A stretch of DNA of 64,000 nt from Desulfobaccales bacterium. Lineage in GTDB: Bacteria; Desulfobacterota; Desulfobaccia; Desulfobaccales; 0-14-0-80-60-11. Made by a program: the position numbers and the translations under genes. Below, in pieces: positions 5,605 to 61,936 of this stretch; the first letter of the stretch is position 1; each line of letters starts with the position of its first letter. The notes under the pieces are model-generated. The model searched no databases and was not told the origin of the DNA. It saw nothing but the letters and a program-made list of their open reading frames with translations. The DNA lies in contig JBIOJX010000001.1 of assembly GCA_044451265.1 (NCBI GenBank), forward strand, positions 1,892-65,891. The letters are read 5' to 3'.

Positions 5605-5680
5605 GGCGGGGTAGCTCAGTCGGTAGAGCAGGGGACTGAAAATCCCCGTGTCGGCAGTTCGATTCTGTCCCCCGCCACCA
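5605..5680 (+). tRNA. tRNA-Phe (anticodon GAA)
   Basis: Cloverleaf read by eye: acceptor GGCGGGG/CCCCGCC, D arm GCTC-AGTCGGTA-GAGC, anticodon stem-loop GGGGA-CTGAAAA-TCCCC, T arm GGCAG-TTCGATT-CTGTC, encoded CCA. Confidence 0.95.
5636..5680 (+). repeat. attL core: 45-nt 3' part of tRNA-Phe, repeated perfectly at 61701-61745
   Basis: ctgaaaatccccgtgtcggcagttcgattctgtcccccgccacca is identical at both positions, same orientation. Confidence 0.85.
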
Positions 5681-5699
5681 GTGATTTCAATGGGTTAGC

Positions 5700-6941
5700 C
5701 TAAATCGGCTGCCCTTTTTTTATGCCTTGGTCAACGTTTTGGTCAACACTTGCCAAAATAAGTTGACCAGCTAACCACTCGGTGTATCTATCCATGGCCC
5801 GGTGAAGGTCGTCCTCAGAGGGGGCCAGATAGTGAATGTCCATCCCCTGCAAGCTATGGCCCAAGATCAGGTCCCGATGCACCTTATCAACACCAGCATT
5901 CAACATATTGGTCTTGACCGTCCGCCGGAAGTCGTGGAAGGTGATCCCGTTTGGTTTATTGTGGCCCTGGGGGATTCCGGCCCTTGTGCAAGCTGTGATG
6001 AAAGATTTTTTGAATCCGCCATTTGTTCCTATGGGTTCACCCTTATAGGTGAACACAAAATCATGGTGGATAGTCCGGGTAAGTCCTGCCAGGACCTCTT
6101 TAACGTGGTGATTCATGGGAATAATCTTAGCGCGGCTCTCTTTGGTCACGTCAGCCGGAAGTCTGATAACCCCTTTTTCCCGGTCGATATGTGACCATCG
6201 CAACCCCAGGAGTTCGCCGGTCCTCATCCCGGTATTAAAAGCCGTGGTGATGATCCCCTTTAGGTGTGGGGCGGCCACGTCCACCAGCCGAAGATATTCA
6301 TCCACGGTCAGGGTCCGTTTTCTGGCATTGTCTCCCCGTCTCAATTTTCTCTTGACCCGCCGGAATGCCTTGACCGTCCTACCATCCACCAGGTCGTTAT
6401 CGAATGCCTTAGTTATCATGGTCTTGGTAATGCTGATCTCCATGTCGATGGTAGCCGCGGCCCGGCCTTCCTCTTCCCGCTTCTCCTGGTACTCTTCCAG
6501 GTCTTGCAGTTTAATGCTGCTTACAATCCGGCTACCGAAAACTTCATTGAAGTTTTTCGAAATCGCCTGAATCCGCCGATAGGAAGCAAGTTTCTTGACG
6601 GTTTTCTGTTCAAGATACCAATCTGAAAGTTTGGCAAAGGTCATTTTCTCGGCGGGTACTTTTGCCAGAATGCCAGGGTTTTCAAACTTTTGGGCTTTGC
6701 GCTTGCCCTCCGCTGCCCTGGCTTCTTCGATTCCGGCCGGCCGACCCGACCCATCAGGGAGATTCCCCACAAATTCCCGGCGCTGCTGGCCATTGGGCAG
6801 CCGGTAGTTTACCCAATAGCGCACCTTCTGCCTGCGCTTGGCCTTCACCAGGTCTTCACCACAGGCACAGAGGCGGTTCTTGACCGCCTGTTTCTTGTGG
6901 CAGAGCGGGCATTCAGCTAAAATTGCCATTAGTCCTTTCAC
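5700..6941 (-). CDS. int: tyrosine-type site-specific integrase
   Basis: 413 aa. N-terminal CPLCHKK..CACG zinc-finger-like region, SAM-like core-binding region, C-terminal catalytic region with R (MRTGELLGLRW), HDFRRT and LGHSLQGMDIHY (catalytic Tyr). Confidence 0.9.
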   Translation of the reverse strand: MKGLMAILAECPLCHKKQAVKNRLCACGEDLVKAKRRQKVRYWVNYRLPNGQQRREFVGNLPDGSGRPAGIEEARAAEGKRKAQKFENPGILAKVPAEKMTFAKLSDWYLEQKTVKKLASYRRIQAISKNFNEVFGSRIVSSIKLQDLEEYQEKREEEGRAAATIDMEISITKTMITKAFDNDLVDGRTVKAFRRVKRKLRRGDNARKRTLTVDEYLRLVDVAAPHLKGIITTAFNTGMRTGELLGLRWSHIDREKGVIRLPADVTKESRAKIIPMNHHVKEVLAGLTRTIHHDFVFTYKGEPIGTNGGFKKSFITACTRAGIPQGHNKPNGITFHDFRRTVKTNMLNAGVDKVHRDLILGHSLQGMDIHYLAPSEDDLHRAMDRYTEWLAGQLILASVDQNVDQGIKKGQPI

Positions 6942-7116
6942 CCCCTTTTAAAAAAGTTTCCAGGTCGCTTTCTCGGACCCGCCACAGGCGGCCTACCTTC
7001 ACGCCCTTTAGCTTCCCACTCCTAAGCCAATTACCCACAGTCAAGCGGCTTATATGTAGCCGCATGGCTACATCTTCCGGGGTCAAAAGGTTATCTTGGG
7101 CTTGGTTCTCGGACAT
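6913..7116 (-). CDS. xis: excisionase-family helix-turn-helix DNA-binding protein
   Basis: 67 aa: LLTPEDVAMRLHISRLTVGNWLRSGKLKGVKVGRLWRVRESDLETFL, typical HTH_17/excisionase pattern. Overlaps the integrase start. Confidence 0.8.
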   Translation of the reverse strand: MSENQAQDNLLTPEDVAMRLHISRLTVGNWLRSGKLKGVKVGRLWRVRESDLETFLKGGERTNGNFS

Positions 7117-7302
7117 AGGGGCAGGCTCCCTGCTCTTGTTTTGCTTATCCTAAGTCAACTAAAGTTAATTGTAAATACGTTTGATTAATTATTCGTATAA
7201 AAATAGGCAGGGTGAAAAACTTCCCGGCCCTCTGTTCTTGATGGTAAATTCGCTTTGTCGCCCTACCTAGGCCTATTCTCTATGCCCTTCCCCCTTATCG
7301 CC

Positions 7303-7776
7303 TCAAATTGGAGGCGTTTTCCTGTCTTCTACCCCGTCAATTTGAGATTTAAAACGGTTGGCCGAACCCCGTTTTACCAGTTCCGCCTTTTGCTCTGAGG
7401 TCAACAGCCGTTTTTTCTTCGCCCCACCCATTTCCGCCGCGGTCGGCAGGGCCTCTTGGGTGAAGTAGAGTTCGGCTTCGCCCTCAAAATGGAAATCGGC
7501 CTTGATGAATCCGGGGGCGTCCTTGATGGCCTCGTAAATATTCCGGGCCATTTTAACCCGGTCTATCCAGAGTTTGAAGGTCAGGGGTTGGATGGATTGC
7601 ACCCCGATAAAGCCGCCTTTCACCGGGATGCGTTCGTACCAAACGCGATTAGGCTCCCGTTCTTCCGCCAGTTCGTGATAATAGGAAGGATCTAAATCAA
7701 AGCGGTAGCGGCTGCCCATGATTTTAGCAAGATGGAATCGGCCTTTACGGGTCGTGGTTCTGGTATTTTCAGCCAT
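7303..7776 (-). CDS. hypothetical protein (island cargo)
   Basis: 157-aa ORF with ordinary amino-acid composition, no motif recognised. The start may be the internal ATG at 7719, because the divergent neighbour begins only 2 nt away. Confidence 0.45.
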   Translation of the reverse strand: MAENTRTTTRKGRFHLAKIMGSRYRFDLDPSYYHELAEEREPNRVWYERIPVKGGFIGVQSIQPLTFKLWIDRVKMARNIYEAIKDAPGFIKADFHFEGEAELYFTQEALPTAAEMGGAKKKRLLTSEQKAELVKRGSANRFKSQIDGVEDRKTPPI

Positions 7777-7778
7777 TT

Positions 7779-8300
7779 TTGGTAGGAGTATCTATTCTGA
7801 GAATTGCCGCCATAAATCCCCCAGGCCAAAGGATACGGTATCCACATGGCGGTTACCGCTCGTCGATACTGACCGAGGCGCAACGCCTCTCTATCCTGGA
7901 CAAAATTGCCAGCCTGGTCGACGAAAACCTATGTGGCCGCTCCGAGATGTGCATACAATTTGCAAATCTCCTTTCACGCGCACTCACCCATCTCGGATTT
8001 CCAGGACGCCCTGTTCTCGGGACGGCAATTTATTACGACAATAAAGGGAGCGAGATTTTTAGGTGGAAACATGCCTGGGTTCGGGTTGGAGAAGAGGTAA
8101 TCGATGGAAACGTCGATTGCCTGTCCGAGAATCCTATGGTTCCTTCCTCCGTCAACATTGCCCCATATTGGGGGCCTATAAAAAAAACCCCGGCTGACAG
8201 AAAACTCCGTGAGGATCGCGAAGCAAAATTAAATCCCGATAGTGATGTCGAAGATATCTGGTGGCCAGAGCTACTGACTTTGCTCGATGAGACACAATAA
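7779..8300 (+). CDS. transglutaminase-like (Cys-His-Asp) superfamily protein, hypothetical
   Basis: CGRSEMC ... KHAWVRV ... DGNVD spacing resembles a papain/transglutaminase-like core. TTG start uncertain; lower GC than surroundings. Confidence 0.45.
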   Translation: MVGVSILRIAAINPPGQRIRYPHGGYRSSILTEAQRLSILDKIASLVDENLCGRSEMCIQFANLLSRALTHLGFPGRPVLGTAIYYDNKGSEIFRWKHAWVRVGEEVIDGNVDCLSENPMVPSSVNIAPYWGPIKKTPADRKLREDREAKLNPDSDVEDIWWPELLTLLDETQ

Positions 8301-8310
8301 ACTGGACAAA

Positions 8311-8500
8311 ATGACAAATTCCCGGAAAAACCACACCGGCAGCGAGGTCGAAAAGCTCTTGGCCGCCGCCAAGGGCAGCCGGAACGAGGTCCACGACCGC
8401 TCCTCATGCTCCTGATGTTTCGGCACGGATTGCGCGTGTCGAAGTCGTGCGGCCTTGAAGGACAAGGACCCGCATTAGTCGCGGAAAGATTTTAGCCGCA
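8311..8500 (+). pseudogene. N-terminal fragment of a small tyrosine recombinase (FimB/XerD-like), frameshifted and truncated
   Basis: MTNSRKNHTGSEVEKLLAAAKGSRNEVHDR then, after a +1 shift, LLMLLMFRHGLRVSKS.. This matches the ..RDR.LLLL.YRHGLRVSE.. arm-region pattern of recombinases. No catalytic domain follows. Confidence 0.5.
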
Positions 8501-8973
8501 TCAAGTCGCCCAAGACATAGACTCCAAGACACACTATACAGGGGTTTTCTTATCCTGCAAAGTGGTTGGACTACGACCCGGCTGCCCGTCTCCCCCGTAA
8601 GCCGTGATCCCGGCTTTTTGCAGGCGACCGGCATCAGCCCTTCCTTGAGCCTCTTATCCTGTTGCCGCCCATGTGTATGCTCAGGCGACGTGACCTCTTC
8701 ACCAGGCCGAGGCCCAGGAGCAACCCACAACCTTCCTGGGAGCGCCGTAGACGGCCCTGGGTGAACGCTCAGGGCTGACTCCTCCTCCCCTTGGCGCTGG
8801 TGTGCTGGCCGATGAGCTGAGATATATTGACTATGTGCCCCTACGGGCTTGAAGGCAACGGAAGCCGAAAAATGATAGAGAAAGCGGCTGGGCCGGCCAA
8901 CAAAGTACACATATGGATTGGGTATCGAAGCATTTTAGCAGGACCCAAAGTATTGAAGATATAGCAGATATAT

Positions 8974-9450
8974 TCAGCCTCTATCGGGGGCTGTTCCCGG
9001 AGGAGCCGGGCTGACCACCAGCACCGGCAAATCCGCGGCCTCCAGGACGCGCTCCGTCACCGAACCCAACAGGGAGCGCCGGTGCCCTTTTCGCCCCATC
9101 TTACCCATAACGATCAGGTCCACCCTAAGCTGCTCAGCCTCCGACATAATGATTTCATCGGGCATGCCGGTGCGGAGATCTATAGTTACCATAACTCTCC
9201 GGTGCTGGGCCTCTCGAGATAAGGTGCTCAGCATTCTTTTGCCGCTTTCTTCCATATCCTGGAGCAGGCGGGGTTGTTCCTGGCCGGAAAGACGGGAAAG
9301 CTCAGCCAATGCCGAAGAATCAACGACATAAAGCAAGATAACTTCGGCTCCATAAGTAGCTCCCAAATCCAGGGCCAGCCGGTGGGCCTCCAAAGAGGCG
9401 GCGGAGCCGTCAATGGGAACCAGAATCTTGCGAAAGCCCGGCATGCTCAT
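8974..9450 (-). CDS. universal stress protein (UspA family)
   Basis: ILVPIDGS...VILLYVVD...GKMGRKGHRRSLLGSVTERVLEAADLPVLVV. Confidence 0.85.
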   Translation of the reverse strand: MSMPGFRKILVPIDGSAASLEAHRLALDLGATYGAEVILLYVVDSSALAELSRLSGQEQPRLLQDMEESGKRMLSTLSREAQHRRVMVTIDLRTGMPDEIIMSEAEQLRVDLIVMGKMGRKGHRRSLLGSVTERVLEAADLPVLVVSPAPPGTAPDRG

Positions 9451-10073
9451 ACCCTTTTGGTCTTGCGGGCCTTAACCCGCTTTAGCTGGAACAGAGCCTC
9501 ACGTTCCCTTTCCTCCAAGGCCCCTTCCAGGTAGTGGATGGTTTCCCTATAGCTCGGGATCATTACATAATTTAAGGCATTGCTGCGCCGCACCGTACGC
9601 TGCAATTCCCCGGCCAGACGCCAAAGCACCGCCTCTACTTCGGCCAAGGCGGTGATTTGGCCCAGGGCTTCCCGGATGGCCAACTGGCACTCGTCCAGAG
9701 AGGATACGGTGCCCCCGAAACTGAACTCAGGGCGGCGGGACCCGGGGTGGAATTCCACTACGGGCATGGGCATCCCCAAAAAGGCGCGGTCCTTTAAGAG
9801 GACCCGATCGTCTCCCTCGACCCCCAGCGCCGCACGAGCCACGGCAGCGCTTCCCAGGGTCAACAGCCCGGCGGTCAATGACTGATAGGCGTCCTCCAGG
9901 GCCCGTGCCATAGCCCGGCGCATCTTGACGGCCTGGGCTTGCAGCCGCAGCAATTCCTCCAGCAGCAGGTCTCTTTTCTCTTCCAAAAAGGTCAGGGCAT
10001 CGGCGGCCAGAACATATTCTTCCCGGAGTTTAAGAAGATTCCCCTTGGTCGCTGATACGGTCAGCCGCGCCAT
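9447..10073 (-). CDS. atpD: V/A-type ATP synthase subunit D
   Basis: MARLTVSATKGNLLKLREEYVLAADALTFLEEKRDLLLEEL is the typical subunit D N-terminus. Last gene of the ATPase operon. Confidence 0.9.
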   Translation of the reverse strand: MARLTVSATKGNLLKLREEYVLAADALTFLEEKRDLLLEELLRLQAQAVKMRRAMARALEDAYQSLTAGLLTLGSAAVARAALGVEGDDRVLLKDRAFLGMPMPVVEFHPGSRRPEFSFGGTVSSLDECQLAIREALGQITALAEVEAVLWRLAGELQRTVRRSNALNYVMIPSYRETIHYLEGALEEREREALFQLKRVKARKTKRV

Positions 10074-10119
10074 GTTCGCTCCTGCTTGGCAAGAAAAATG
10101 CGGAGGGGGGCTGGGGCCT

Positions 10120-11517
10120 TTAGCCTGCCTCCCAAAAAGTACTGATTTCTTCTGCGGTAACCCGCGTCAATTCGGAGCGGGACAATTCCCTCAGCACTTT
10201 CCAGGCCAGGTCGAGGGTGTAGGTGAGGTCCCGGTTCTCATCCTGTCCCTGGCGGATAAATTGTTCCTCAAAGGCCCGGCCGAACTTAAGGATCTGGCGA
10301 TCCGGCGGTGACAGGCTATCTTCTCCGATAATATTGGTCAAGGCCTGAATCCGTTGCACCCTGGCATAAGCCGCGTAGAGTTGGGAGGCCACATGGGCGT
10401 GGTCGGCTCGGGTGCGATTGGCGCCAATGCCGTCGCTCATCAGGCGGGACAGAGACGGCAGCACATTAATGGGCGGATAGATGCCTCGCTGGTGTAGGGC
10501 CCGGTCCAGGACGATCTGCCCTTCAGTGATATAGCCGGTGAGGTCCGGGATAGGATGGGTGATGTCGTCATTGGGCATGGTAAGGATGGGCAGTTGGGTT
10601 ATGGACCCCCCGCTGGTGACGATCTTCCCGGCTCGCTCATAGAGCGCGGCCAAATCACTGTATAAGTAGCCCGGATAACCCTTGCGACTGGGGACCTCAC
10701 CCTTGGACGAGGCCACTTCCCGCAGGGCCTCACAATAGTTGGTCATATCCGTGAGGACCACCAAGATGTGGCGGCCCTTCTCGAAGGCCAGATATTCAGC
10801 GACGGTTAGCGCCAGCCGTGGGGTAATCAGGCGTTCAATGGCCGGGTCGTCTGCCAGGTTGAGGAACATCACCACATTATTGAGCACTCCGCTGGCTTCA
10901 AAAGATTGGCGAAAGAGACCGGCGATGTCGTGTTGCACCCCCATGGCGGCAAAGACGATGGCAAAACGTTCTTCTTCGCCCGGCAGCCGGGCCTGACGGA
11001 CAATCTGGGCCGCCAGTTCGTGGTGGGGCAAACCGCTCATGGCGAAGATGGGTAGTTTTTGCCCGCGGACCAGGGTATTCATCCCATCAATGGCAGAAAT
11101 GCCGGTCTGGATGACTTCCTGGGGGTAGGCCCGGGCCGTGGGATTAATAGGTTGGCCATTGATATTCCGGGTAGTTTCGCCCACCGGCGGTGGGCCGCCA
11201 TCCCGAGGTTGCCCCAGGCCGTCAAAGATTCGGCCCAGCAGATCTTCCGATACCGGCAGCATCAGCGGCGAGCCGACAAAACGTACCTGAGTCTGGTTCA
11301 GGGACAGGCCCATGGTTTCGCCGAAGAGTTCGATCACCGCTTCCTGTCGACCAACTGCCAGCACCCGGCCCATTTTTCGGGAGCCATCCCCGAAGGTGAC
11401 TTCCACGCTTTCGCCGTAGCCCACCCCCTGGACCCCCTCCACTACCAGCAAGGGGCCGGCAATGCTCTTGAGGGAGAGGTATTCCCGGCCGGAAGGTCGG
11501 TGGTTAGGCGCTGCCAT
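10120..11517 (-). CDS. atpB: V/A-type ATP synthase subunit B
   Basis: Non-catalytic B-subunit motifs ([36 protein letters not shown]-like [21 protein letters not shown]). Likely start is the internal ATG ([13 protein letters not shown]..). Confidence 0.92.
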
Positions 11518-13276
11518 GGTTGACCAGGGCCTCCATTCGGGCTGATAGGGTATTAGCCAATTCCTCAAACCGGTCCAGTTGATCCTCGCCCCAGCGGGAT
11601 TTCATCTGCAGCAAATCGGTTAGCTCGGCAATGGCGCGAATCTGATAGAAGGGTATGCCCTGGGCCAGCACACCGCGAGCCTGGCGGTAGGCCCCCAAGA
11701 TCAGGTGCAGCATCTTCATCTGTTTTTGTGGCGAGCAGAACATGTCCTGGGGATCAAAGGCGCTTTGCTGTAGGAAACCTTCTTTGAGCCAGCGGGCCGC
11801 CTCCAGGGTCAGCCGCTTGGAGTCCGGGAGGGCTTCCTCGCCCAGGAGCTTAACGATGCGCTGCAATTGATAATCCTCCTGGAGTAAGGCCAGGGTTTCC
11901 TCTCGCATTTCCTTCCAGGCCGGGTCGATGTTCTTGGTCCACCAAGCCGCGATGGCGTCGGCGTATTCGCTGTAGCTGTCTGTGGTATTGATGGCGGGAA
12001 AATAACGGGCCGCGGCCAGTTCTTTATCCAGGCCCCAAAAACACCGCACAAAGCGTTTGGTATGGGTGGTTACGGGTTCGGAAAAATCCCCGCCCGGGGG
12101 AGAGACCGCACCGATGATGGACACCGAAGCCCGCGCCCCATTCAAGGTGACGACGCTGCCGGCCCGTTCATAGAACTCCGCCAGCCGGGTGGCCAGATAG
12201 GCCGGGAAGCCTTCTTCGGCCGGCATTTCTTCCAGACGGCCGGAAATCTCCCGGAGGGCCTCGGCCCAGCGAGAGGTGGAGTCGGCCATTAAGGCCACCT
12301 GATAACCCATATCCCGGAAGGCTTCGGCCAGGGTGATGCCGGTGTAAATGGAGGCTTCCCGGGCCGCCACAGGCATATTTGAGGTGTTGGCAATCATCAG
12401 GGTCCGCTCTATCAGGGCATGGCCGCTGCGGGGATCCTGCAGCCGCGGGAGCTCGGCCAAAATACCGGTTATCTCATTGCCCCGCTCGCCGCAACCCACA
12501 TAAACGATCAGGTCGGCGGCGCACCACTTGGACAACTGCTGCTGGGTGATGGTCTTGCCGGTGCCGAACCCCCCGGGGATGGCCGCGGTTCCCCCCTTAG
12601 CCAGGGGAAAGAGGGTGTCCACCACCCGTTGCCCGGTGATTAGCGGTTCCGTGGGCAACAGCCGCTGCCGATAAGGCCTGACCCGGCGCACCGGCCAGCG
12701 ATGCCAGAGGTAGAGGCTAACCTCTTTGCCTTTAGGAGTGCGCACCCGGGCGATGGTCTCAGTCAGGGTATAATCCCCGGGTGGCGCCAGGTAAGTGAGC
12801 GTCCCTTGGAGCAGGGGCGGGGCCAAAACCCGATGTTCCAGGGCCGGGGTTTCCGGCACAGTGCCCAGAACTTCGCCGCCTTGTAAGGTAATCCCCACCT
12901 GCAGGCTGGGTGTGAAGGACCAGACTCGTTCCCGGTCCAGGGGAGTGACCGCCAGGCCTCGGGAAATAAAGGAACCTTGGACTTGCTGCAGAACGTTCAA
13001 GGGTCGCTGGATGCCATCAAAGATCTGGCCTATCAGGCCCGGCCCGATCTCCACGGAGAGGGGCGCTCCCTGGCCTACCACCGGGTCCCCGGGGCGAATG
13101 GACTCGGTATCCTCATAAACCTGGATCGTGGCGGCATCCCCGGCCAGTTCAATAACCTCCCCAATGAGGCGTTCCTCTCCCACCTCCACCACCTCATACA
13201 TGGAGAGATCTCCCCCGCCGGAGGCTTTGACTACCGGCCCGCTGACCCAACTGACTTCACTTTGTTTGTCCGGCAT
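11504..13276 (-). CDS. atpA: V/A-type ATP synthase catalytic subunit A
   Basis: Walker [10 protein letters not shown]; GERGNE and [22 protein letters not shown] motifs; 590 aa. Confidence 0.95.
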
Positions 13277-13334
13277 ATTTTATTTCGGGAGCATGGGGAC
13301 CAAAACGACGGTTAGGGCTCTCCCTTCTCACAAC

Positions 13335-13952
13335 TCATTGGCTTTCCCATAACTTCCGGGCTATTTCCGTACGCAGCCTTTCCATCTGTCGGTTAATAAT
13401 TCCCTGGAAGGTCTGGTCCAGACGCATCCGACCATCCTCCCGAACCGCGATGAAGCCGCCGGGAGGTACCTCGTCATCCAATTCCAACTCAAGATGGGCC
13501 CCCGTCTTTTGGCCCACTTCCGTAAGGAGCTCAGCGGTCAGCCACTTGGCATCTTCGGGGTTGGCCAAGATGCGCAAGCCTGCCCCGGTAAGCTCGTGCA
13601 GGGCCTTGAGCAGCAGGCGCCGAAGCCAGTCTGGGTAATCGGCCTGGTGTCGGAAGGCCTGCAGGCGTTCCATCCCGAGTTTAAAGATCTCGCCCAGCAA
13701 AGTCTCTTTGGCTTCGGCTATCCGGCGCTTACTTTCCAAAGCCGCGCGGTCTACCAGGTTGCGGGCGGTGAGCAAGGCCTGGGCCCGCATTTCTTCGCTG
13801 GCTCGGCGTACCGCCTCCCGGCCCCGCGCCTCTTCGGCAGCCACCAGTTGGTCGGCTTTTCCCCGGGCCTGGCTGACGATCTTTTCAGCCTCTTGTTTCC
13901 CCTGCGTCAGGATTTCCTGGCAGAGAAGTTCCACTTGATCATAGAGGGGCAT
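13335..13952 (-). CDS. atpE: V/A-type ATP synthase subunit E
   Basis: 205 aa. N-terminal charged coiled coil (QEAEKIVSQARGKADQLV...) and C-terminal GGFIAVREDGRMRLDQTFQGII pattern. Confidence 0.8.
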   Translation of the reverse strand: MPLYDQVELLCQEILTQGKQEAEKIVSQARGKADQLVAAEEARGREAVRRASEEMRAQALLTARNLVDRAALESKRRIAEAKETLLGEIFKLGMERLQAFRHQADYPDWLRRLLLKALHELTGAGLRILANPEDAKWLTAELLTEVGQKTGAHLELELDDEVPPGGFIAVREDGRMRLDQTFQGIINRQMERLRTEIARKLWESQ

Positions 13953-13958
13953 GGCTTC

Positions 13959-14273
13959 TCACCTGGGTAGGCCCATCAAAGAGCGCAGCCGGTCCAGCAA
14001 CGATTCTTTCTGGGCCATCGGCCCGGCCAGGTCGGGGATTTCCAAAATCAAAGGTCTTAGCCGGTCTCGCCGGGCTCCATCTACTGCCTCCCGGACCTGG
14101 TCGGCCAGTCGTTCGGTAATCAGGACCAGTCCCACCTCAGGGTCTTCCCAAGACTTGACTAACAATTCCTGGACCTTGCCGGGGGTATGCGCCACTTCTC
14201 CCCTTATTCCGGCCAGGGAAAAGGCGTTAATGGTGTGTTCATCGGCAATAACAAAAAACTTCAGATTGTCCAT
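13959..14273 (-). CDS. atpF: V/A-type ATP synthase subunit F
   Basis: 104 aa: KFFVIADEHTINAFSLAGIRG...LVLITERLADQV. Confidence 0.85.
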   Translation of the reverse strand: MDNLKFFVIADEHTINAFSLAGIRGEVAHTPGKVQELLVKSWEDPEVGLVLITERLADQVREAVDGARRDRLRPLILEIPDLAGPMAQKESLLDRLRSLMGLPR

Positions 14274-14294
14274 GACATTATGGTTCTGGGCCGG

Positions 14295-16585
<2,291 letters not shown>

Positions 16586-16593
<8 letters not shown>

Positions 16594-17653
16594 AACGGCC
16601 TCCCGCGGCCCTTCCCCGGATCAGGGGGCTTAGCCGATCGGATGGGATTCTGAGGATAATACCGGTGAACAGGGTGATCAGGTTACGGATCTCCAATTCT
16701 TTTAATAGTAAATAAGTTATGGGCAAGCCGATCTGGAAGGGCGGCAGGGTAAAGACCTTCTCCAAGGTCTTCACCCAGTAACGGGTCAAACGTTCTTCCA
16801 CCGCGGCCAGGTCAGAGGCCCCTTCCAGCACCTCTCCATAAGGTCGCCGGGGTAAACGGGTGATCACGGCAGCCAGATTCGGGGCAAAGGCCAGGTCATG
16901 CCGTCGGCGTGGCTCCCCCAGGCTCCCGGCCTCCAGGAGGTACTGGTAGGTTTCCTCTCCGGGGAAGCCGTAGATCTCCCGAAAGCGTCCCGCCCAGATG
17001 ATGTTGTTGATATCCGCCAGGGTTCCAAGAAGTTGGCCTGATAGACGCCGGTCCCGTCCAGACAGGCTGTTCCGTCCTCGCAGGATGTAGTCGAATACCC
17101 AGAGATCTAATGACATTTCCAGGGGGAAGAGACTGTGCTCCCGCAAGTACCGGGGCAACCCCCGCACCAGGGGCGGCCCCCAAGGGGTGTTAGCCAGATA
17201 ATTCACCAGGGCGCTGATATCTCTCTGATTCAGCAACTCCCGGAAGTTCAACGGGGATAACCTATCCAACGGTATGAGCAGGCGAACCGCCTGGTCGGGG
17301 GCCAGCCCCCGGTGGAGTGTCCGCAGCACCACCTTGAGATTTTCCGCCACCAGCCTCTGCGCCAATATCCCGATAAAGAGCCGCTCCCGTTTCTTCAATC
17401 CCCGGCCCACCTTCTGGAAGGCCTGAGCCAACTCGCCATAGAGACGCTGGCTGAACTCACTTTCTGCCTCTGGGCTATGCCAGTCCCACCCACTTAAGGC
17501 CACTCCATATGCCGTGGTGGAGAGATATCCCAGAAAGTCATCGAGATGACGAGACCGCAGGAGAAAATGATAATCTTCCGCGGTTAGTAGAAAGCTTTTG
17601 AGAGCCATGATCTTGGCTCCCCCATAGGCATAGCGCCAGACCCTGAAGATCAT
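16586..17653 (-). CDS. atpC: V/A-type ATP synthase subunit C (d/AC39 family)
   Basis: 355-aa all-helical protein in the expected operon position. ATGA overlap with the upstream gene. Confidence 0.8.
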
Positions 17654-17964
17654 TCCGCTAACACCAGGGATAGGAGAAAAGCTGCGACCTCTTCCCCATG
17701 GGTATCTCGTTTCTCACGCAGTCCCGCAATATACCGTTCGGTGCTCTCTGCCACCTCAGCGGCCCTTGTCTTGGCCTGGCGCAGAATCTCTTCCTGGACG
17801 GTTTCTTGGAGTTGGGCGAGCTCACCTTGAAGTTTTGCCTGGATCGCCTCAATCCGGATTTGAGCGTAGTCCAGCAGCGTCCGCGCCTCTTTTTGGGCCT
17901 GGGCCACCAGAGCTCGAGCCTCACGGTCGGCGAGGATGATTTTTTCTAAATCAGGTACCATCAA
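17650..17964 (-). CDS. V/A-type ATP synthase peripheral-stalk subunit (G/H-like coiled coil)
   Basis: 104 aa, highly charged heptad-like sequence (EARALVAQAQKEARTLLDYAQIRIEAIQAKLQ). First gene of the operon. Confidence 0.55.
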   Translation of the reverse strand: MMVPDLEKIILADREARALVAQAQKEARTLLDYAQIRIEAIQAKLQGELAQLQETVQEEILRQAKTRAAEVAESTERYIAGLREKRDTHGEEVAAFLLSLVLAE

Positions 17965-18291
17965 TTCCTACCAGAGGCTGAAAATAGTGGTTTTTAGTGA
18001 ACATATAGAAGACCCTGCGTCTGCGGCTCAGGCTGACGGGGGAGGCAATTTTAAATAAAAAACTCTGACATATCCAATTAGTAATGGCGCTATCGGTATA
18101 AATCAATGGGCGGAAGCCTGCTGGGCTTTTAGCTGCTAGCCTCCCGCTTCATCGGGCTGGGACCCAGTTTGTGTGCCCTCTCTGACATGCATTTCCTGAC
18201 AGATGGCCGTGAACCGGGGCCCTTCGGAGAACGAGAGATTGAACATTTCCAGCCTTTCCAGCTCCCCCTTGTGTAATCTACGTTCAAGGTA

Positions 18292-19503
18292 TTACAGACC
18301 CTTGCCCGTCTCCTGGACGGCCCGTTCCATTTCCTTTTCCAGGGCGGCCGGTAGTCCCTCAATCTTAACTTTGAGGAAGCCTCGAACAATGGTGGAGACG
18401 GCCTCGTCTTCATCTAGTCCCCGGGCCATGAGGTATTCCACTTCCTCTGCGGCGATTTTGCCCACCGCGGCTTCATGAGACATATCCACCCCGGCCACCC
18501 GGCCTTCCAGTTCGGGGATGGCGTAGATGATCCCGGTAGGGGAGAGGATAAGCCCGCGACATTCCAGGTGGGCCTTGATCTCGGGAGCCTGGCCGACCAG
18601 GTGGCCGCGACTAATGCACTTGCCGCCGATGGTGAGGCTGCGGGCGATGACCTCGGCCCGGGTTTGGGGGGCCTGCAGGATCACCCGGCCACCGATATCC
18701 AGCTCGGAACCTGGATGAGCGATAAGAATGGAGTTGAGGCGAGCCACAGCTCCCGGACCCGCCAGGGTCACGGTGGGATAGGTTTGCACCGTTTTAACCG
18801 GCTTGAGGAGGATATAGTTGGAGATGTAGCAGCCGCCCTCTTCCACCCAGACCCCGGTGCGGGGGCGCACATGGACGTCTTCCGCCCAATTGTGGATCAT
18901 GGTGAAGGTGAGCTGCCCCCCGGCCCGCACATAAAACTCCGAGACCCCCACATGGAGGCCGGAGTGCACCGAGGGATGAGTGGTGCAGCCAGTGATGATA
19001 TGGAGCTGGGCCCCGGGCTCGACGATTACCAGATTATGGATGTATTGGGCGAAGAGGTCGGTGCGCAGATAGAGGCAGGACTCCACCGGCTGCGCCAGGC
19101 GCACCCCGGGCAGGGCTCGGGTGAAGTAGCCGTTGTCCAGCTCCAATTCTGCCCGGGCCGTATATTTATCGGCATCCACCTCTACCAAACGCCAGAGGTA
19201 ATCGGACACCCAATCGTAACGGTGCACGGCCTCGGTGATGGGCAACACTTCCACCCCCGGCTGGTTTACCCGGCAGTGCACTACCTTGGCATCGGCCTGC
19301 AAAAAAGTACCGGCATGTTCCTCGTCGGTCAATTCAATACCGGCTTTGAGCAGATGCTGCCGCTCTTCGGAAGTGAATTGACGGTACTCGGGATCGTAAG
19401 CCCAGTCGCCCCCCTGGCGGGAGAAGTCCTCCAGATTGAGATCTGGCCCCAGGGCGGCTTTCTTATCCCGACTCTTGGCGGCGCGGGTTTTTACCTCAGA
19501 CAT
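18292..19503 (-). CDS. sufB: Fe-S cluster assembly scaffold SufB/SufD-family protein
   Basis: C-terminal beta-helix repeats and ..HEAAVGKIAAEEVEYLMARGLDEDEAVSTIVRGF.. signature. Likely start MSEVKTRAAK, overlapping the sufC stop. Confidence 0.85.
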   Translation of the reverse strand: MSEVKTRAAKSRDKKAALGPDLNLEDFSRQGGDWAYDPEYRQFTSEERQHLLKAGIELTDEEHAGTFLQADAKVVHCRVNQPGVEVLPITEAVHRYDWVSDYLWRLVEVDADKYTARAELELDNGYFTRALPGVRLAQPVESCLYLRTDLFAQYIHNLVIVEPGAQLHIITGCTTHPSVHSGLHVGVSEFYVRAGGQLTFTMIHNWAEDVHVRPRTGVWVEEGGCYISNYILLKPVKTVQTYPTVTLAGPGAVARLNSILIAHPGSELDIGGRVILQAPQTRAEVIARSLTIGGKCISRGHLVGQAPEIKAHLECRGLILSPTGIIYAIPELEGRVAGVDMSHEAAVGKIAAEEVEYLMARGLDEDEAVSTIVRGFLKVKIEGLPAALEKEMERAVQETGKGL

Positions 19504-20213
19504 CGGGCGCACTCCTCGTAGCCGTACTGCTTGAGATGCTGGAGAATTTCCCGGGGGTTTCCCTGACACGGTATTTTCCCGTCCAACAAGATATAGCCGC
19601 TGTCAGCATTAACATAATCCAGGATAAAGCCGGTATGGGTGATGATCAGTCCGGATTTTTCCCGGTGCCCCCGGCGCCGGTCTTTCTGCAGCAGTCGACC
19701 GATGATTTCCCCCACCACTTCGAGGTTCTCCAGGTCCACCCCCGATTCAGGCTCATCCAGAAGCACCAGCAACGGGTCCTGCACCAGCAATTGCAGGAGT
19801 TCCGAGCGTTTCAGCTCGCCTCCGGAAAAGCCGTAGTTAACCTCCCGATCCAGAAAAGGAGTGAAGTTGTACTGCTCCACCAGGGGCAGGTAGGGTTTCA
19901 TACCGGCGCAGGCGTAAAGGACATCTCCGGTTTTCACCCCGCGAATCGAGGGCGGCCGCTGAAAGGCCAGCCCCAAGCCCAGGCGGGCCCGCTCATAAAT
20001 AGGCGAGTGCGTGATGTCCCGGCCTTGGAAGGAGATCTTCCCCTGCTTTACCTGGTAACGCTGAAAACCCATGATGGTCATGAGCAGGGTAGATTTTCCA
20101 GAGCCGTTCTTGCCGAAGAGGACATGCGTCTCTCCCAGTGGGATGTGCAGATTGATCCCTCTGAGAATTTCCTTGCCGTCAATGCTCACCCACAAATCTT
20201 CGATCTTGAGCAT
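19491..20213 (-). CDS. sufC: Fe-S cluster assembly ATPase SufC
   Basis: Walker A GKNGSGKSTLL, signature FSGGELKRSELLQL, Walker B LVLLDEPESGVD. Confidence 0.92.
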   Translation of the reverse strand: MLKIEDLWVSIDGKEILRGINLHIPLGETHVLFGKNGSGKSTLLMTIMGFQRYQVKQGKISFQGRDITHSPIYERARLGLGLAFQRPPSIRGVKTGDVLYACAGMKPYLPLVEQYNFTPFLDREVNYGFSGGELKRSELLQLLVQDPLLVLLDEPESGVDLENLEVVGEIIGRLLQKDRRRGHREKSGLIITHTGFILDYVNADSGYILLDGKIPCQGNPREILQHLKQYGYEECARCLR

Positions 20214-44296: not shown

Positions 44297-44297
44297 C

Positions 44298-46953: not shown

Positions 46954-47478
46954 ATGTCCATGTCCCGCGGCACCTTCGGAATCTTCTTGCTGTTTTTGGC
47001 TCTAACCCTGGCCAATGCCGGCTGGGCCCAAACCACCAAACCCGCTTCACCCGACCATGTCATCCTTTATAAGCGGGCAGTCTCGCTCTTGGACCAGGCC
47101 CAACAGCAATTGAATGCCGGCAACCTCTCTGCGGCCAAGTCCCAGTCGAAAGAGGCCAATTCTCTTTTCACTCTCCTTAAGAAACAATACGACTCACTGC
47201 TGGCGGAGCATGAGCTTACTCCCCAAGAGGAGCAGCAACTGGCCATCAACCAAAAACTGTCCAGCGACGCCCACGCCCAGGCGGATCGCTTGATGGCAAC
47301 CGCCGCTGCCCAGGATAAGAAGGCCCGGGAGCTTGAGACGCAAGGACGTGAGGCGGATTCCAAAGCCTCGTATCGGCAGTCCAGGGACGAATATAACCGG
47401 GCGCAAAATCTCTACATCAAGTCCTCGATTTACGCCCTGCGCAATCAGCAGAGGGTCTTTCTCTTCCTGGCTCCTTAA
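46954..47478 (+). CDS. secreted alpha-helical/coiled-coil protein, hypothetical
   Basis: Signal peptide MSMSRGTFGIFLLFLALTLANAGWA, then Q/A/E/K-rich helices. Confidence 0.5.
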   Translation: MSMSRGTFGIFLLFLALTLANAGWAQTTKPASPDHVILYKRAVSLLDQAQQQLNAGNLSAAKSQSKEANSLFTLLKKQYDSLLAEHELTPQEEQQLAINQKLSSDAHAQADRLMATAAAQDKKARELETQGREADSKASYRQSRDEYNRAQNLYIKSSIYALRNQQRVFLFLAP

Positions 47479-47504
47479 ATCGGGGTATTCAACCGAAAGG
47501 CACC

Positions 47505-48629
47505 ATGATCAGGTCCCTTAACAGTTTTTTCCGGAGATTCTGGGTCTCAAAACCTCCTGCGTTCCAGTACCTCCAGGTGGAAGTGACCACCCGTTGCGAT
47601 CTCTCCGGCTGCTTGATGTGCCCCCGGAGCGCCTGGCCGGAGCGCTGGTTACACCAGGATCTCTCCTGGCAAAATTTTGAACGGCTCATCCCGGCTCTCA
47701 AATTTTTCAAACATGTTCATTTAAGCGGCTGGGGTGAGCCCCTGTTACACCCGCGGCTATGGGATATGGCCCAAGCAGCCCGCTCCCAGGGCTGCACCGT
47801 CAGCCTGACTACCAACGGCATGAATTTAACCGAAGCCATGCAGGTGCAGGTCTTGGAGCATCTGGACATGGTTGCGGTGTCACTGGATGGGGCAACGGCT
47901 GAAACTTTTGAGCGGCTGCGGCCTGGGGCCGATTTTCAGCGAGTCACCCAACAGGTTGCGGCGCTTTGCTCTCGCAAGCGGTCTCTGGGAAGACCGCGGC
48001 CGGAGGTGGTCTTACTGTTTATGAAGATGCGGCCTAATCTTACCGAATTACCTGCTTTCATCGAATTGGCTGCATCGTTTGGAGTTGATCGGGTCAATGC
48101 CACTAACCTGGATTTTATCCCAAATCCGGCAATGGAAGGCTTATCCCTCATAGCACCCAGTCCTCCAAGCCGGAAAATTGCAGAAGTGCTTGAACGGGCT
48201 GGTCAGAAGGCCAGGGAATTAAACTTGCCATTTCGCGATCTTAGCCTAATCTCGGCTGACGATCTTATGGTCTGCGCCGCCAATCCTCTTGAGAATGTCT
48301 TTGTCACCGCTTCCGGCGACCTCGCACCTTGCGTTTACCTGGGTCTGCCCTTATCTGGAGATTTCTCCAGGCAGTTCTTTCAAAAATCTGTCACCGCGCA
48401 AAATTACCTTTATGGCAGTATCCATCTCCAGGAATTTCTGGAAATCTTTCAACAACGGGCTTATCAGGAGTTCATTGGCTGTTTTCGCCGTCGGGTGCAA
48501 GAAAGTTCGAACCTGATTAATGATTTGGTGCCGAACTGCCAGACTTCAATTACGCAAAATCGGCTTACCTCGGAGCGATTTCCTTGGCCGCCTGCTTGCC
48601 AGGGATGTTACAAAAAACTCGGTTTTTAA
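47505..48629 (+). CDS. radical SAM protein with SPASM/twitch-like C-terminal domain
   Basis: ..LQVEVTTRCDLSGCLMCP.. cluster motif, GWGEPLLHP, SLDGATAETFERLR; C-terminal Cys-rich region ..CAANPLENVFVTASGDLAPCVYLG. Confidence 0.85.
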   Translation: MIRSLNSFFRRFWVSKPPAFQYLQVEVTTRCDLSGCLMCPRSAWPERWLHQDLSWQNFERLIPALKFFKHVHLSGWGEPLLHPRLWDMAQAARSQGCTVSLTTNGMNLTEAMQVQVLEHLDMVAVSLDGATAETFERLRPGADFQRVTQQVAALCSRKRSLGRPRPEVVLLFMKMRPNLTELPAFIELAASFGVDRVNATNLDFIPNPAMEGLSLIAPSPPSRKIAEVLERAGQKARELNLPFRDLSLISADDLMVCAANPLENVFVTASGDLAPCVYLGLPLSGDFSRQFFQKSVTAQNYLYGSIHLQEFLEIFQQRAYQEFIGCFRRRVQESSNLINDLVPNCQTSITQNRLTSERFPWPPACQGCYKKLGF

Positions 48630-59835: not shown

Positions 59836-60813
59836 ATGGAAGAAGCCGCTGCACGGCAAATCAATTATCTGCGGATTTCCATTACGGACCGCTGCAATCT
59901 CCGTTGCGGCTATTGTACCTATTGGCAGGAATTTGAACGGTTGCCGCCCGGGGAGATCCTCAGCTATGAGGAGTTGTTGCGGCTTGCCGCGGTGGCGGCG
60001 AAGATTGGCATTCGGAAAATCAGGGTCACCGGCGGCGAGCCCCTGGTGCGCCGGGGAGTGGTGGACTTTCTCCATAACCTGCACCGGACGCCCGGGATTG
60101 AGGAAGTATGCCTGACCACCAATGGCGTGCTGCTGGCGGACTTGGCTCCGGCCTTATATGAGACAGGACTCCGCCACCTTAACCTCAGCCTGGACACCCT
60201 GCGCCGTGAGCGCTATCGAGAAATCACCGGCCGGGATAATTTGGGGGAGGTCCTGGCCGGACTGGAGCGGGCCGTCACCCTGGGCTTCGGCCCTTTAAAA
60301 ATCAATTGTGTGGTGTTGGCCGGCATCAATGACGATGAGCTGATGGATCTGGCCCTCCTGGCCAGGGATCACCCCTATCAGGTGCGGTTCATCGAGCTGA
60401 TGCCCACGGTTTCGCCCCGGCAGTGGCAGCAGAACTTTCTTCCCATGGCGGAGGTCCGCCGTCGTCTGGCCGCTCTGGGTCCCATGGCCGCGACGGACCG
60501 CCGGACTACAGACGGTCCGGCCCAGATCTTTCAGCTACCCGGCTTTCAAGGAGAACTGGGGTTTATCACCCCCATCAGTTCCCATCACTGCCGCACCTGC
60601 AATCGCCTGCGTCTGACCGCAGGCGGCGCCTTGCGGCCCTGTCTTTTTGGCGACGCCGAAATTGATGTAAAGACCCCCTTGAGGCAAGGGGCCTCCGAGG
60701 GTTGGCTGGCTTCGCTTTTCGCCGAAGCCATCACCCAAAAATCCGCCAGATTCTCCTTGCCACCCGCTCCTTTCCCCCTTTACAGCTCCTCCATGGTCAG
60801 CATCGGCGGCTGA
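59836..60813 (+). CDS. moaA: GTP 3',8-cyclase (molybdenum cofactor biosynthesis protein A)
   Basis: INYLRISITDRCNLRCGYCTY, VTGGEPLVR, TTNG..L, C-terminal CxxCNRLRLTAGGALRPCLF. Confidence 0.92.
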   Translation: MEEAAARQINYLRISITDRCNLRCGYCTYWQEFERLPPGEILSYEELLRLAAVAAKIGIRKIRVTGGEPLVRRGVVDFLHNLHRTPGIEEVCLTTNGVLLADLAPALYETGLRHLNLSLDTLRRERYREITGRDNLGEVLAGLERAVTLGFGPLKINCVVLAGINDDELMDLALLARDHPYQVRFIELMPTVSPRQWQQNFLPMAEVRRRLAALGPMAATDRRTTDGPAQIFQLPGFQGELGFITPISSHHCRTCNRLRLTAGGALRPCLFGDAEIDVKTPLRQGASEGWLASLFAEAITQKSARFSLPPAPFPLYSSSMVSIGG

Positions 60814-61280
60814 TCTATTAGAAAGTTGGCCTTAGCCCTTACAGTATCTTCTTAGATTCGCACTGCTGAACTGGTTGATAGCTTGTCACTATACGCCCTT
60901 CCGCTAATCTTTCCATATGATTCGTATATCGGAAGGCCTTTGCAAATGAAGTTTGGATTGGGATTTCCGCCGAAAAATTAAAAAATCTCCGAGGCCATCA
61001 TATTTACCCGGGGATAGTCATAGTGCGAAGATTTCCGGTTTCCGACCCAGACTAAGGCCAGAGCGCGAGATCGGGTAGTGATGACGCCAAAACGGCGGGC
61101 GTGAAGAAATCGGCACGGGGTGCCTTCTCTTAGCCGACGTTGCCTACCTGGAGCGCCGGCAATCTGAAATGCGCCCCCAGACCTCCCTCCAGAAAGATAA
61201 ATCTATGGCGCACAGGACCACTCACAGCCCCGCCACGGCCTGGGAAAGGAGACAGCCGAGGAAGAGGTCATGGGCGCCTT

Positions 61281-61409
61281 GAAATGCTTAAATCGGCCCA
61301 GGAAGGCCCGCCGCCCAAACATATTTTGCTTATAAAATTTTTAGCTTGGGTCCCATCCCCGGGGGGGGTACTTCGATTTTTCCGTGATCGGATTTTGGAA
61401 AAAAATCTC
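61281..61409 (+). pseudogene. decayed fragment resembling the N-terminal (DUF772-like) region of an IS5-family transposase
   Basis: ..EGPPPKHILLIKFLAWVPSPGGVLRFFRDRILEK.. vaguely matches GRP..P..L....LL......S...L.....DR. Surrounded by homopolymer runs and no intact ORF. Confidence 0.3.
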
Positions 61410-61700
61410 CGTACCACCCATATATTAAACAAGGGGGGGACCACCCTTCATCTCCGGCTTTTGATTCCGGGGCCGAAAAATATGTAGGGAAGGACAGGTG
61501 AGATGGGATGCAAATTGGCAGGGCCAATAGTTGCTCATTGGCTCCGCTTGGTCAACATTTGGTCAACAATTTGCTGAAAATAACCCCCCTTTCCCTTGGG
61601 TTTCCCTGCCTGCCCCGATTGAGGGTATATGGGGATAACTATCTAATTTACTTCTGTGTTGGGCTATCCCCATATATCCCAATTTTTCCACAGATAAGAG

Positions 61701-61745
61701 CTGAAAATCCCCGTGTCGGCAGTTCGATTCTGTCCCCCGCCACCA
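61701..61745 (+). repeat. attR core: perfect 45-nt copy of the tRNA-Phe 3' part
   Basis: Identical to 5636-5680. No 5' half of a tRNA precedes it. Followed by about 60 nt resembling the integrase 3' end. Confidence 0.85.
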
Positions 61746-61936
61746 ATGATTTCAGGGGTTAGCCTCAAAGGCTGCCCTTTTTTTATGCCGCTGTTAACGT
61801 TTTGACCCATCCAGGCTATCCTGGGCCTCTGGTGCTGCCGGAAAATCCAAGGTATCGATTCTTTGTATTCCTGCCTAAGAGAAAATCCTAGAGGGAAAGG
61901 TAAGGAATAATCCCAGCAAAATCTCCAGCTGTGCCG

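Follow-up and report, generated by a model that had tools for sequence, protein, structure and literature searches.

Genomic islands inserted at tRNA genes by tyrosine integrases (P4-like islands and others) form a known class, in which the integrase gene lies beside an intact tRNA gene, a direct repeat consists of the 3′ part of the tRNA, the block is absent from relatives and differs in composition, the cargo is adaptive, and hotspot tRNA genes carry tandem arrays or scars. In the λ Int system, arm-type sites are found on both arms of attP (bioRxiv 10.1101/2023.11.06.565760). In Mx8, attP lies inside the int coding sequence, crossover occurs within int and integration alters the C-terminus of the protein (PMC6070905). 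Here we analyse a 64,000-nt stretch of DNA from the Desulfobaccales bacterium GCA_044451265.1 (contig JBIOJX010000001.1, positions 1,892–65,891 of the forward strand; hereafter the window). Its central 56,065 bp (5681–61745) are very probably an integrative island at the 3′ end of tRNA-Phe(GAA), non-conjugative and non-phage, with a λ-type integrase and proposed pairs of arm sites, which entered a site already holding a decaying element (B) and carries a mosaic cargo. Loci fetched from other genomes and metagenomes for comparison are labelled L001–L174.

As a kind the element is ordinary, with the marks of the tRNA-site islands described above, although the difference in composition among them is tentative. 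It departs from them in its integrase family, which is known only from uncultured Desulfobacterota (no relative in IMG/VR, and no close one in the phage and plasmid collections, where the best identity is ∼ 30% or less), and in a cargo of unusually housekeeping-like character (Suf genes, a V/A-ATPase that is complete, and a molybdoenzyme of respiratory type accompanied by genes for its cofactor). With the λ system (P1, P2, P′1–3, Xis) it appears to share repeated arm-type motifs on both sides of the core, and it has a small helix-turn-helix (HTH) protein, the probable recombination directionality factor, and a catalytic fold nearest to the λ and Tn1549 integrases. Unlike λ, it has one direct tandem pair per arm plus an inverted 8/9 copy in P′, its P′ pair and tRNA terminator double as the final ∼ 20 integrase codons, and four invariant cysteines lie in the N-terminal domain of that integrase. 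Overlap of attachment-site DNA with the 3′ coding end of the integrase, a tRNA target and a ‘deltaproteobacterial’ host are shared with Mx8 (PMC6070905). However, the core of the island ends at 5680, 20 nt beyond the integrase stop codon (5700–5702), and only the arm pair and the terminator overlap the open reading frame (ORF), so integration leaves the integrase unchanged and an Mx8-type attP within int is ruled out.

Site-specific tRNA integration, an integrase with an excisionase and a large cargo are also features of integrative and conjugative elements (ICEs) and integrative mobilizable elements. All ORFs of at least 90 aa were scanned. No relaxase, coupling protein, type IV secretion or replication gene was found in the Pfam, PHROG and NCBIfam scans of the window ORFs, and the largest unassigned ORF (197 aa) is too small for a relaxase, a coupling protein or VirB4. 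Because conjugation genes are absent from these scans and no unassigned ORF is large enough, we regard the element as an island rather than an ICE, as the initial annotation of this DNA, made from sequence alone, had also concluded. It differs likewise from a prophage or phage satellite: no capsid, terminase, tail or replication genes were detected in Pfam scans of the remaining ORFs, and a PHROG scan of ten ORFs (integrase, excisionase and the eight without a Pfam match) gave matches for integrase and excisionase only. An integrase relative of 76% identity does sit in a phage-like element (L086, see below).

The boundaries are set by the tRNA. tRNA-Phe(GAA) is the sole tRNA of the window (ARAGORN; Rfam RF00005, 70 bits), and an Rfam scan of the window returned nothing else. 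Its last 45 nt, from the anticodon loop to CCA, recur in the same orientation at the far end with 45/45 identity. Apart from a decayed site at 63489, the best match to this 45-mer elsewhere in the window, on either strand, is 25/45, which is at chance level (200 shuffles, mean maximum 25.6, highest 29). Homology runs on for ∼ 60 nt past both repeats (43/59 aligned positions; 89% identity between 5707–5741 and 61770–61804). On the left this extension is the 3′ end of the integrase gene (...VDQNVDQGIKKGQPI, then stop), whereas on the right it translates to ..GQNVNSGIKKGQPL with no gene body behind it. The repeat, its extension and the different coding status of the two extensions had all been noted before, as had the tyrosine integrase and excisionase directly beside the intact tRNA, and all of this is borne out, the excisionase scoring above its TIGR01764 cutoff. 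The trailer/terminator module that follows the tRNA is kept in L001, L002 and L007. Feature coordinates are collected in Table 1.

Table 1. Features of the island and its flanks, in window coordinates.
Feature	Position	Strand	Basis
Intact tRNA-Phe(GAA); its 3′ 45 nt (5636–5680) are attL, the left direct repeat	5605–5680	+	ARAGORN, Rfam RF00005, repeat family D5
Terminator-like hairpin and T-run 3′ of the tRNA; on the minus strand, the last integrase codons (IKKGQPI, stop)	5696–5721	+	Terminator scan, translation
Tyrosine integrase, 409–413 aa, apparently intact	5700–6929/6941	-	PF00589, phrog_1
Putative P′ arm: TTGGTCAAC twice (5727–5735 and 5739–5747, period 12) and an inverted 8/9 copy (5762–5770)	5727–5770	+	Pattern search
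Excisionase-type HTH protein, overlapping the integrase start	6913–7116	-	PF12728 (HTH_17); TIGR01764, 48 bits (cutoff 28.8); phrog_66
ORF157, conserved backbone gene travelling with integrase and excisionase	7303–7776	-	Neighbourhoods of related islands
Module 1: Usp and V/A-type ATPase operon (subunits D, B, A, E, F, c, I, C, G-like)	8974–17964	-	Pfam
Module 2: SufBD-like and SufC-like genes	18292–20213	-	Pfam; NCBIfam below cutoff
Module 3: arsenic/thiol array	20269–40136	-	Pfam, NCBIfam
Module 4: Metal_resist, O-methyltransferase, amino-acid permease, rhodanese, MauE, DGC, ArsR, radical SAM/SPASM	40678–48629		Pfam
Module 5: periplasmic phosphonate-binding-type protein, sigma-54 activator, receiver protein; TtrB/C/A-like molybdoenzyme, FmdE, MoCF-biosynthesis protein, MoaA	48809–60813	+	Pfam
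Non-coding, lower-GC right end of the island (P-arm region), unique to the window	60814–61700		No six-frame Pfam match
Putative P arm: TTGGTCAAC twice (61548–61556 and 61559–61567, period 11), 134–153 nt left of the attR core	61548–61567	+	Pattern search
attR, perfect copy of the tRNA-Phe 3′ 45 nt (anticodon loop to CCA)	61701–61745	+	Sequence comparison
Scar of older related element B: tRNA trailer/terminator and decayed integrase 3′ end (..GQNVNSGIKKGQPL, minus strand)	61746–61808	+	Sequence comparison
Remnant B genes: small lipoprotein-like ORF, Ros/MucR regulator, PilZ protein	61937–63220		Pfam; 92% nt identical in L002
Decayed second tRNA-Phe 3′ half (aligned part 63489–63524)	63489–63533	+	Alignment with the tRNA 3′ half

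The site was compared in relatives by a scan for the kinase gene that adjoins the tRNA, which gave 80 loci, all from Desulfobaccales, Syntrophobacterales and similar metagenome-assembled genomes (MAGs). The kinase–tRNA-Phe pair is conserved in ∼ 40 of the 80, and an integrase or integrase remnant lies directly downstream in at least nine of these ∼ 40. The most informative relative is L002, whose flanks are 91–94% identical to the window at the nucleotide level. There tRNA-Phe continues without interruption into DNA that matches window 61701–61806 at 92.6% identity, none of the 56-kb cargo genes is present in it, and the genes of window 61899–63353 (lipoprotein-like, MucR, PilZ; 92% nt identity) are reached after 8.2 kb. 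With the block missing and the tRNA joined to the sequence right of 61745, L002 is effectively the empty site that the initial annotation had proposed to look for. Nor is the cargo at the tRNA-Phe site in L001 (kinase 97% identical) or L003 (95%). Directly beside tRNA-Phe, L001 instead has 3.7 kb of 38% GC DNA with unknown ORFs (5987–9745), and L003 has a complete 3.8-kb element with an unrelated integrase (33% identical), bounded by the same 45 nt.

Related integrases are found elsewhere with other cargo, a further point that the initial annotation had proposed to check. Integrases 79–91% identical to that of the island sit 20 nt from tRNA-Phe in L081, L082–85, L093–95, L098 and L099. In L093 the integrase (88–91%) and the excisionase (97%) are far closer to those of the window than is the flanking kinase (only 69%), from which we conclude that the recombination module moves between lineages. 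A second core copy upstream of the integrase was seen in the fetched flanks of none of the 27 integrase-fetched loci except the L086/L113 element, so most of these islands are too long for both ends to show.

Several related elements had been proposed to have used this tRNA in series, and the comparisons support such serial use, with a different occupant in every relative. The scar to the right of attR (61746–61808) shares its decay with the integrase pseudogene of L002, which retains residues 300–394: relative to intact integrase tails, GTCAAC has become GTTAAC and TTGGTCAAC has become TTGACnnAn in both. The scar therefore reads as orthologous to that pseudogene, and the flank of attR as the old tRNA-proximal end of element B, inherited by both lineages. 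The remnant of B (61746–63488) is 1.7 kb long with a GC content of 0.476; its genes lie 8.2 kb from tRNA-Phe in L002. About 1.8 kb to the right of attR we found an outer tRNA fragment, which the initial annotation lacks. It matches the tRNA 3′ half at 29 of 36 positions (63489–63524) with a local score of 37, compared with a null maximum of 24–25 (2000 real segments and 1000 shuffles), or ungapped at 31/45 compared with a null maximum of 29. With attR it shares orientation and exact starting point within the tRNA, and the DNA behind it resembles the tRNA trailer in having GTGAT, a hairpin and a T-run. An arm-site relic, TTGGTTAACAAT, may start at 63377. The fetched locus of L002 ends 136 nt before the equivalent of 63489. 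The layout is thus tRNA-Phe, island A (56 kb), perfect fragment, remnant B, decayed fragment and a flgM-like gene. Arrays of this kind also occur in the metagenomic contigs L092, L105 and L119, where what adjoins the family integrase is not a complete tRNA-Phe gene but a fragment of one.

Both ends of the island carry a short repeated motif. Perfect TTGGTCAAC occurs four times in the 64-kb window, twice in each arm and nowhere else. The P′ pair lies within the integrase tail codons VDQNVDQ and begins 47 nt after the core. Perfect tandem 9-mer pairs with a period of 10–13 are rare, being found at only six places in the window and in 0.5% of the 80-nt windows of all fetched DNA. Two complete elements have the same layout as the island, whose near pair starts at +47 and whose far pair spans −153 to −134 relative to the tRNA-Phe cores. 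The 3.8-kb L003 element, also at tRNA-Phe, carries TGGGAGCAC twice from +47 and twice from −152. The 10.7-kb L086 element (integrase 76% identical), located in nfi, has AAATGTTAGTCATGG in its integrase tail and the same 15-mer in its far arm, where the two units of the repeat begin 131 and 142 nt in from the far end. Half-sites, with a tandem pair 94–145 nt from a tRNA fragment, were found in L105, L109, L119, L122 and L168 (metagenomic arrays) and in L171.

The C-terminal tail of these integrases always has a two-fold repeat, but the repeat itself varies (VDQNVDQ, VAQNVAQ, VTQTVTQ, VSETVSE, LAKPLAKP, LGQQLGQQ). The underlying DNA is a perfect 9/9 repeat of period 12 in 41 of 84 tails, and both units change together with identical codons (GTTGACCAA, GTTGCCCAA, GTTACCCAA). 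In L003 and in L086 the P pair agrees with the P′ pair of the same element, yet each element has its own sequence; repeats across the family include TTGGTCAAC, TGGGAGCAC and GTTAGTCAT, and those of half-sites GGTGAGTAGGT, ATATTCACC and GTGGTATCCGCG. Since the T-run and hairpin behind the tRNA also encode the final residues of the integrase, its last ∼ 20 codons appear to be written by attP and terminator DNA. For this family of uncultured Desulfobacterota we therefore favour, with some reserve, a general arrangement in which the last ∼ 20 integrase codons would be a read-through of attP (arm pair and terminator) rather than shaped for the protein, a matching pair would lie ∼ 140 nt inside the far end, and the two arms would change in step. 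The covariation of integrase tail and arm pair is to us the most interesting by-product of the analysis. If the arrangement holds, nature would offer, in the hundreds of members of this family, integrase specificities already paired with arm-site specificities, at tRNA-Phe, -Arg, -Leu and -Pro as well as nfi, and these could serve to decipher or redesign arm recognition; the peptide repeat of the tail (VDQNVDQ, VAQNVAQ, LAKPLAKP etc.) would be a simple marker of arm specificity. Matched arm pairs also give a practical rule for locating both ends of an island of this family, even where the tRNA fragment alone is visible.

The cargo comprises a V/A-ATPase, Suf, an arsenic/thiol array and a molybdoenzyme; Pfam and NCBIfam agree with the earlier assignment on this point. 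By comparison with other loci it is a mosaic of modules with separate histories, because the V-ATPase, ars and ttr-like modules occur separately, elsewhere and next to other recombination modules. In L173 the Usp/V-ATPase block is 92% and the ars genes 80–88% identical at the nucleotide level, without Suf and at a different position, although the core flank is only 74–77% identical to the window; the V-ATPase block of L174 is likewise 92% identical. In L055 the ars genes adjoin tRNA-Phe directly but are oriented the other way, and the fetched 9.7 kb contain no integrase, integrase scar or second tRNA fragment. The ars–ttr block of L172 lacks the 40.2–48.8 kb segment (module 4) and terminates where an IS5-type fragment is fused with an integrase remnant and tRNA-Glu, and the ttr-like module of L171 is 95.6% and 86.6% identical to the window at the nucleotide level. 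The same modules are exchanged between lineages at higher identity than the core genome.

Such separate histories leave room for the view that the 56 kb were built in place by several insertions or rearrangements and never travelled as one unit, with the repeats and integrase marking the last or outermost event and the block possibly fixed by now. The variation of GC from 0.50 to 0.62 by module fits this view, as do the V-ATPase/ars block of L173, the reversed ars genes of L055, the ttr-like module, which in L171 adjoins a different arm pair and in L172 a tRNA-Glu with an integrase remnant, and the absence of the 40.2–48.8 kb segment from L172. However, the island holds no internal tRNA fragment above noise and, by Pfam, no second integrase or transposase, and the mosaic could have been assembled in earlier hosts. 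Its cores and arm pairs are perfect, its integrase and excisionase are intact and there are no internal att relics, so that the block is today bounded as one excisable unit. We consider construction in place possible but rather unlikely. The earlier proposal that the cargo moves or moved as one block therefore stands as far as a single bounded unit, absent from L001, L002 and L003, is concerned; the separate occurrence of the modules elsewhere and the lack of a second whole copy tell against it. That the copy at 61701–61745 is instead the relic of a duplicated tRNA-Phe gene unrelated to the integrase, a possibility raised with the initial annotation itself, is hardly credible: tRNA genes are sometimes duplicated and only a 3′ half is present here, but it begins exactly at the anticodon loop with no 5′-half similarity upstream, the same 45 nt bound the unrelated element of L003, family integrases in L092, L105 and L119 abut the same kind of fragment, and in L002 the tRNA is joined directly to the sequence right of 61745.

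The stretch around 61495–61590 had been read as a third, decayed copy of the integrase 3′ end and flank, left by another earlier insertion. The similarity itself is real (61540–61585 versus 5727–5762); it extends a few bases past the 9-mers (AATTTGCTGAAAATAAC versus ACTTGCCAAAATAAG) and weakly across the terminator-like stretch, and serial insertion does occur at this tRNA. As a scar, however, it would be odd. Both 9-mers are perfect while their surroundings are not, whereas those of the genuine scar at 61746–61808 have decayed; it has no tRNA fragment before it; its place is within the island, as far from the core as the tandem pairs of L003, L086 and six other fragments; and in the complete elements (L003, L086) the far pair matches the element's own integrase tail. 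We think a third copy quite improbable. Because both pairs are perfect, the layout recurs in complete elements, tail and arm covary and the 9-mers of the true scar are decayed, 61548–61567 is most likely the island's own P-arm pair of putative integrase arm-type sites. What binds the pairs is a further question, since their recognition by the integrase is read from sequence. The Xis sites of λ are likewise tandem direct repeats, and a VDQNVDQ-type tail repeat is conserved even in members only 40% identical, so that the pairs might bind the excisionase or a host bending protein, or be kept for the encoded peptide. λ Xis sites are confined to the P arm. Here the same motif is present in both arms, as for the arm sites of λ Int (bioRxiv 10.1101/2023.11.06.565760). 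The far-arm copy is non-coding, and therefore a peptide constraint cannot explain it; both repeat units use identical codons; and residues 396–409, just downstream of the repeat codons (388–394), are modelled as disordered (AF2, pLDDT < 50). On balance we judge a role other than integrase binding improbable.

We propose that a λ-type heterobivalent tyrosine integrase recombined attP of the island with the last 45 nt of the tRNA gene, in which case the island would supply the new tRNA 3′ half at attL and the old half would be displaced to attR. The integrase, the excisionase-type HTH protein and ORF157 form the recombination module at the left end, and the integrase would bind paired TTGGTCAAC in both arms, P′ in its own last codons and P ∼ 140 nt inside the far end. 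Integrase and excisionase together would release the island as a 56-kb circle with the predicted attP junction 61700 / 45-nt core (CTGAAAATCC...CCACCA) / 5681. The island is well delimited and probably still excisable; present-day excision and the route of transfer between cells are inferred. It would have entered a tRNA-Phe gene that already held the related, decaying element B, of which the integrase scar, the genes for MucR and PilZ and the outer, decayed piece of tRNA would be left. Each module of the mosaic cargo, be it the V/A-ATPase, Suf, the arsenic/thiol genes or the Ttr-like molybdoenzyme and the cofactor genes that go with it, would have travelled independently.

Some observations weigh against this interpretation. 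L002 is not strictly empty, as its tRNA is separated from the right-flank genes common to both by 8.2 kb, ∼ 8 kb of which (L002_rc ∼ 12026–20168) are missing from the window. The comparisons turned up no other complete copy of the 56 kb, and the modules occur separately elsewhere, so that we infer movement as one unit only from the boundaries. The composition controls are not independent, the reference flanks being homologous to the left flank of the window. The structural match of the integrase N-terminal domain to arm-binding domains (TM ∼ 0.3–0.4 overall) is only suggestive, and the 9-mer pairs, here assigned to the integrase, could be bound by the excisionase or a host factor instead.

In composition, the left flank has a GC content of 0.635 and the island 0.562, as judged with a host reference that is short and homologous to the left flank. 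GC at third codon positions is 0.74–0.83 in four of the five left-flank ORFs (0.42 in the doubtful ORF 127–618) and mostly 0.6–0.75 in island genes. A tetranucleotide comparison, weak because its host reference is again homologous to the left flank, points the same way as GC.

The integrase, whose 3′ end lies 20 nt from that of tRNA-Phe, is full length by comparison with 120 homologues; more than 1000 homologues of similar length have 67–89% identity. The motif residues of tyrosine recombinases are readable (R in MRTGE, K in TKESRAK, HDFRR, GHS and HY). An AF2 model (mean pLDDT 78) has an N-terminal domain of β-sheet plus helix (residues 1–83; pLDDT ∼ 87 for 1–40 and 67–81 for 41–83), and behind it the two-domain body typical of recombinases. 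In fold it is nearest to Tn1549 Int and full-length λ Int, both heterobivalent, with overall TM values of only 0.33–0.40 because the domains are oriented differently; matches to solved structures by sequence are weak. The four cysteines (CxxC...CxC; residues 7, 10, 21 and 23; window 6860–6911) are invariant in 53 family members and suggest a zinc ribbon in this putatively arm-binding domain. Exact-sequence look-ups with the integrase and the kinase of the window returned no record. ORF157 has no match in Pfam, PHROG or NCBIfam, and copies 46–76% identical adjoin the excisionase and integrase in L093, L094, L100, L107, L109 and L161.

Further occupants were seen at the tRNA-Phe site. In L002 a 276-aa ORF is inserted into the integrase pseudogene (8853–9683); this ORF and the 3.7-kb DNA of L001 are further small insertions at the hotspot. 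In L007 (reverse-complemented, 11949–13928) an integrase 85% identical to that of the island is split by an insertion of ∼ 1.1 kb. L081 (1–11320) has an integrase of 85% identity at tRNA-Phe together with DUF499, DUF1156, SNF2 helicase and Fic genes, which looks like defence cargo. At the other edge of the window, an ORF for a FlgM-like protein (anti-sigma-28; 63780–64000) runs off the end. It was considered as a marker of the chromosomal right flank and dropped: in L006 and L007 the similar flgM-like genes are found across the kinase from this position and show no nucleotide similarity. From their position we conclude that the neighbourhood has been rearranged between lineages.

The L086-type element recurs in L086–L091 and L113 (∼ 432–11280) and in many peat and wetland metagenomes. 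It is phage-like, encodes a DnaB-like helicase, an ERCC4 nuclease, a GpA-type terminase ATPase and two HTH_17 proteins besides its integrase, and occupies the endonuclease V gene (nfi), where a 21-bp repeat marks its insertion. A different arrangement is found 3′ of the ttr-like module in L171 (8463–8925), where two successive units each consist of a tandem pair, ∼ 100 nt and a tRNA-like fragment. The first unit has GGTGAGTAGGT twice and a decayed tRNA-Phe fragment, the second GGGGAGTAcGT/GGGGAGTAGGT and another tRNA-like 3′ end at the contig edge; to judge from these repeats, L171 is a tandem array of a different arm-site type.

Towards the right end of the island, homology to L171 and L172 stops at 60645, inside MoaA and ∼ 56 codons before its stop, so the C-terminus of MoaA in the window (60645–60813) differs from its closest relatives; 60814–61700 has no nucleotide homology in either locus. 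The last ∼ 1 kb thus appears specific to this element. An IS5-like fragment had been reported here (near 61.1–61.5 kb), next to the supposed third copy, and could not be recovered: a six-frame Pfam scan of 60801–61700 at E ≤ 1 gave no match and no transposase signal, and tblastn of the IS5-type fragment of L172 (DDE_Tnp_1_4) against the same region gave none below E ∼ 97. Several homopolymer runs (G7–8, A7, C7) in 60814–61700 may stem from errors of long-read assembly, or the arm DNA there may truly be of low complexity.

A complete V/A-type ATPase, Fe-S assembly, arsenic detoxification and methylation and a Ttr-like molybdoenzyme are thus packaged, by all appearances, in one excisable unit at tRNA-Phe, in a group (Desulfobaccales) known almost only from metagenomes. 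This bears on the reading of arsenic and sulfur metabolism from MAGs, and on binning, where such islands can be misassigned. The molybdoenzyme genes are ordered FeS subunit, NrfD membrane subunit and 1050-aa catalytic subunit (TtrBCA-like), stand in a context of arsenic genes and are preceded by the genes for the phosphonate-binding-type protein and the sigma-54 activator. The match to NCBIfam TtrA (470 bits) is far below its cutoff of 1750, homologues 65–70% identical occur in Thermus, Firmicutes and Chloroflexi, and the substrate may not be tetrathionate.

Module 3 encodes rubrerythrin, DUF1573, two FeS-domain proteins, two ArsC-type LMWPc proteins, thioredoxins, LplA-like, radical SAM and dihydrolipoamide dehydrogenase-like proteins, OsmC, DGC domains, GcvH, ArsM, ArsP, DsbD, two Usp proteins, ACR3, two ArsR and an ECF sigma factor; ACR3 (equivalog) and ArsM (subfamily) score above their NCBIfam cutoffs. 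In L173 (JGI Ga0366818_10046, 1–20506) the shared block lies beyond nitroreductase and CxxCxxCC genes, across a kinase–YdjM–M28 segment of 74–77% identity. Within the arsenic array of the window there are tandem paralogue pairs with 70–83% nucleotide identity (repeat families D1–D4 and D6), involving FeS-domain, double-Usp, ArsR and OsmC/DGC genes (21507–22654, 34254–36051, 37340–38188 and 38379–39443).

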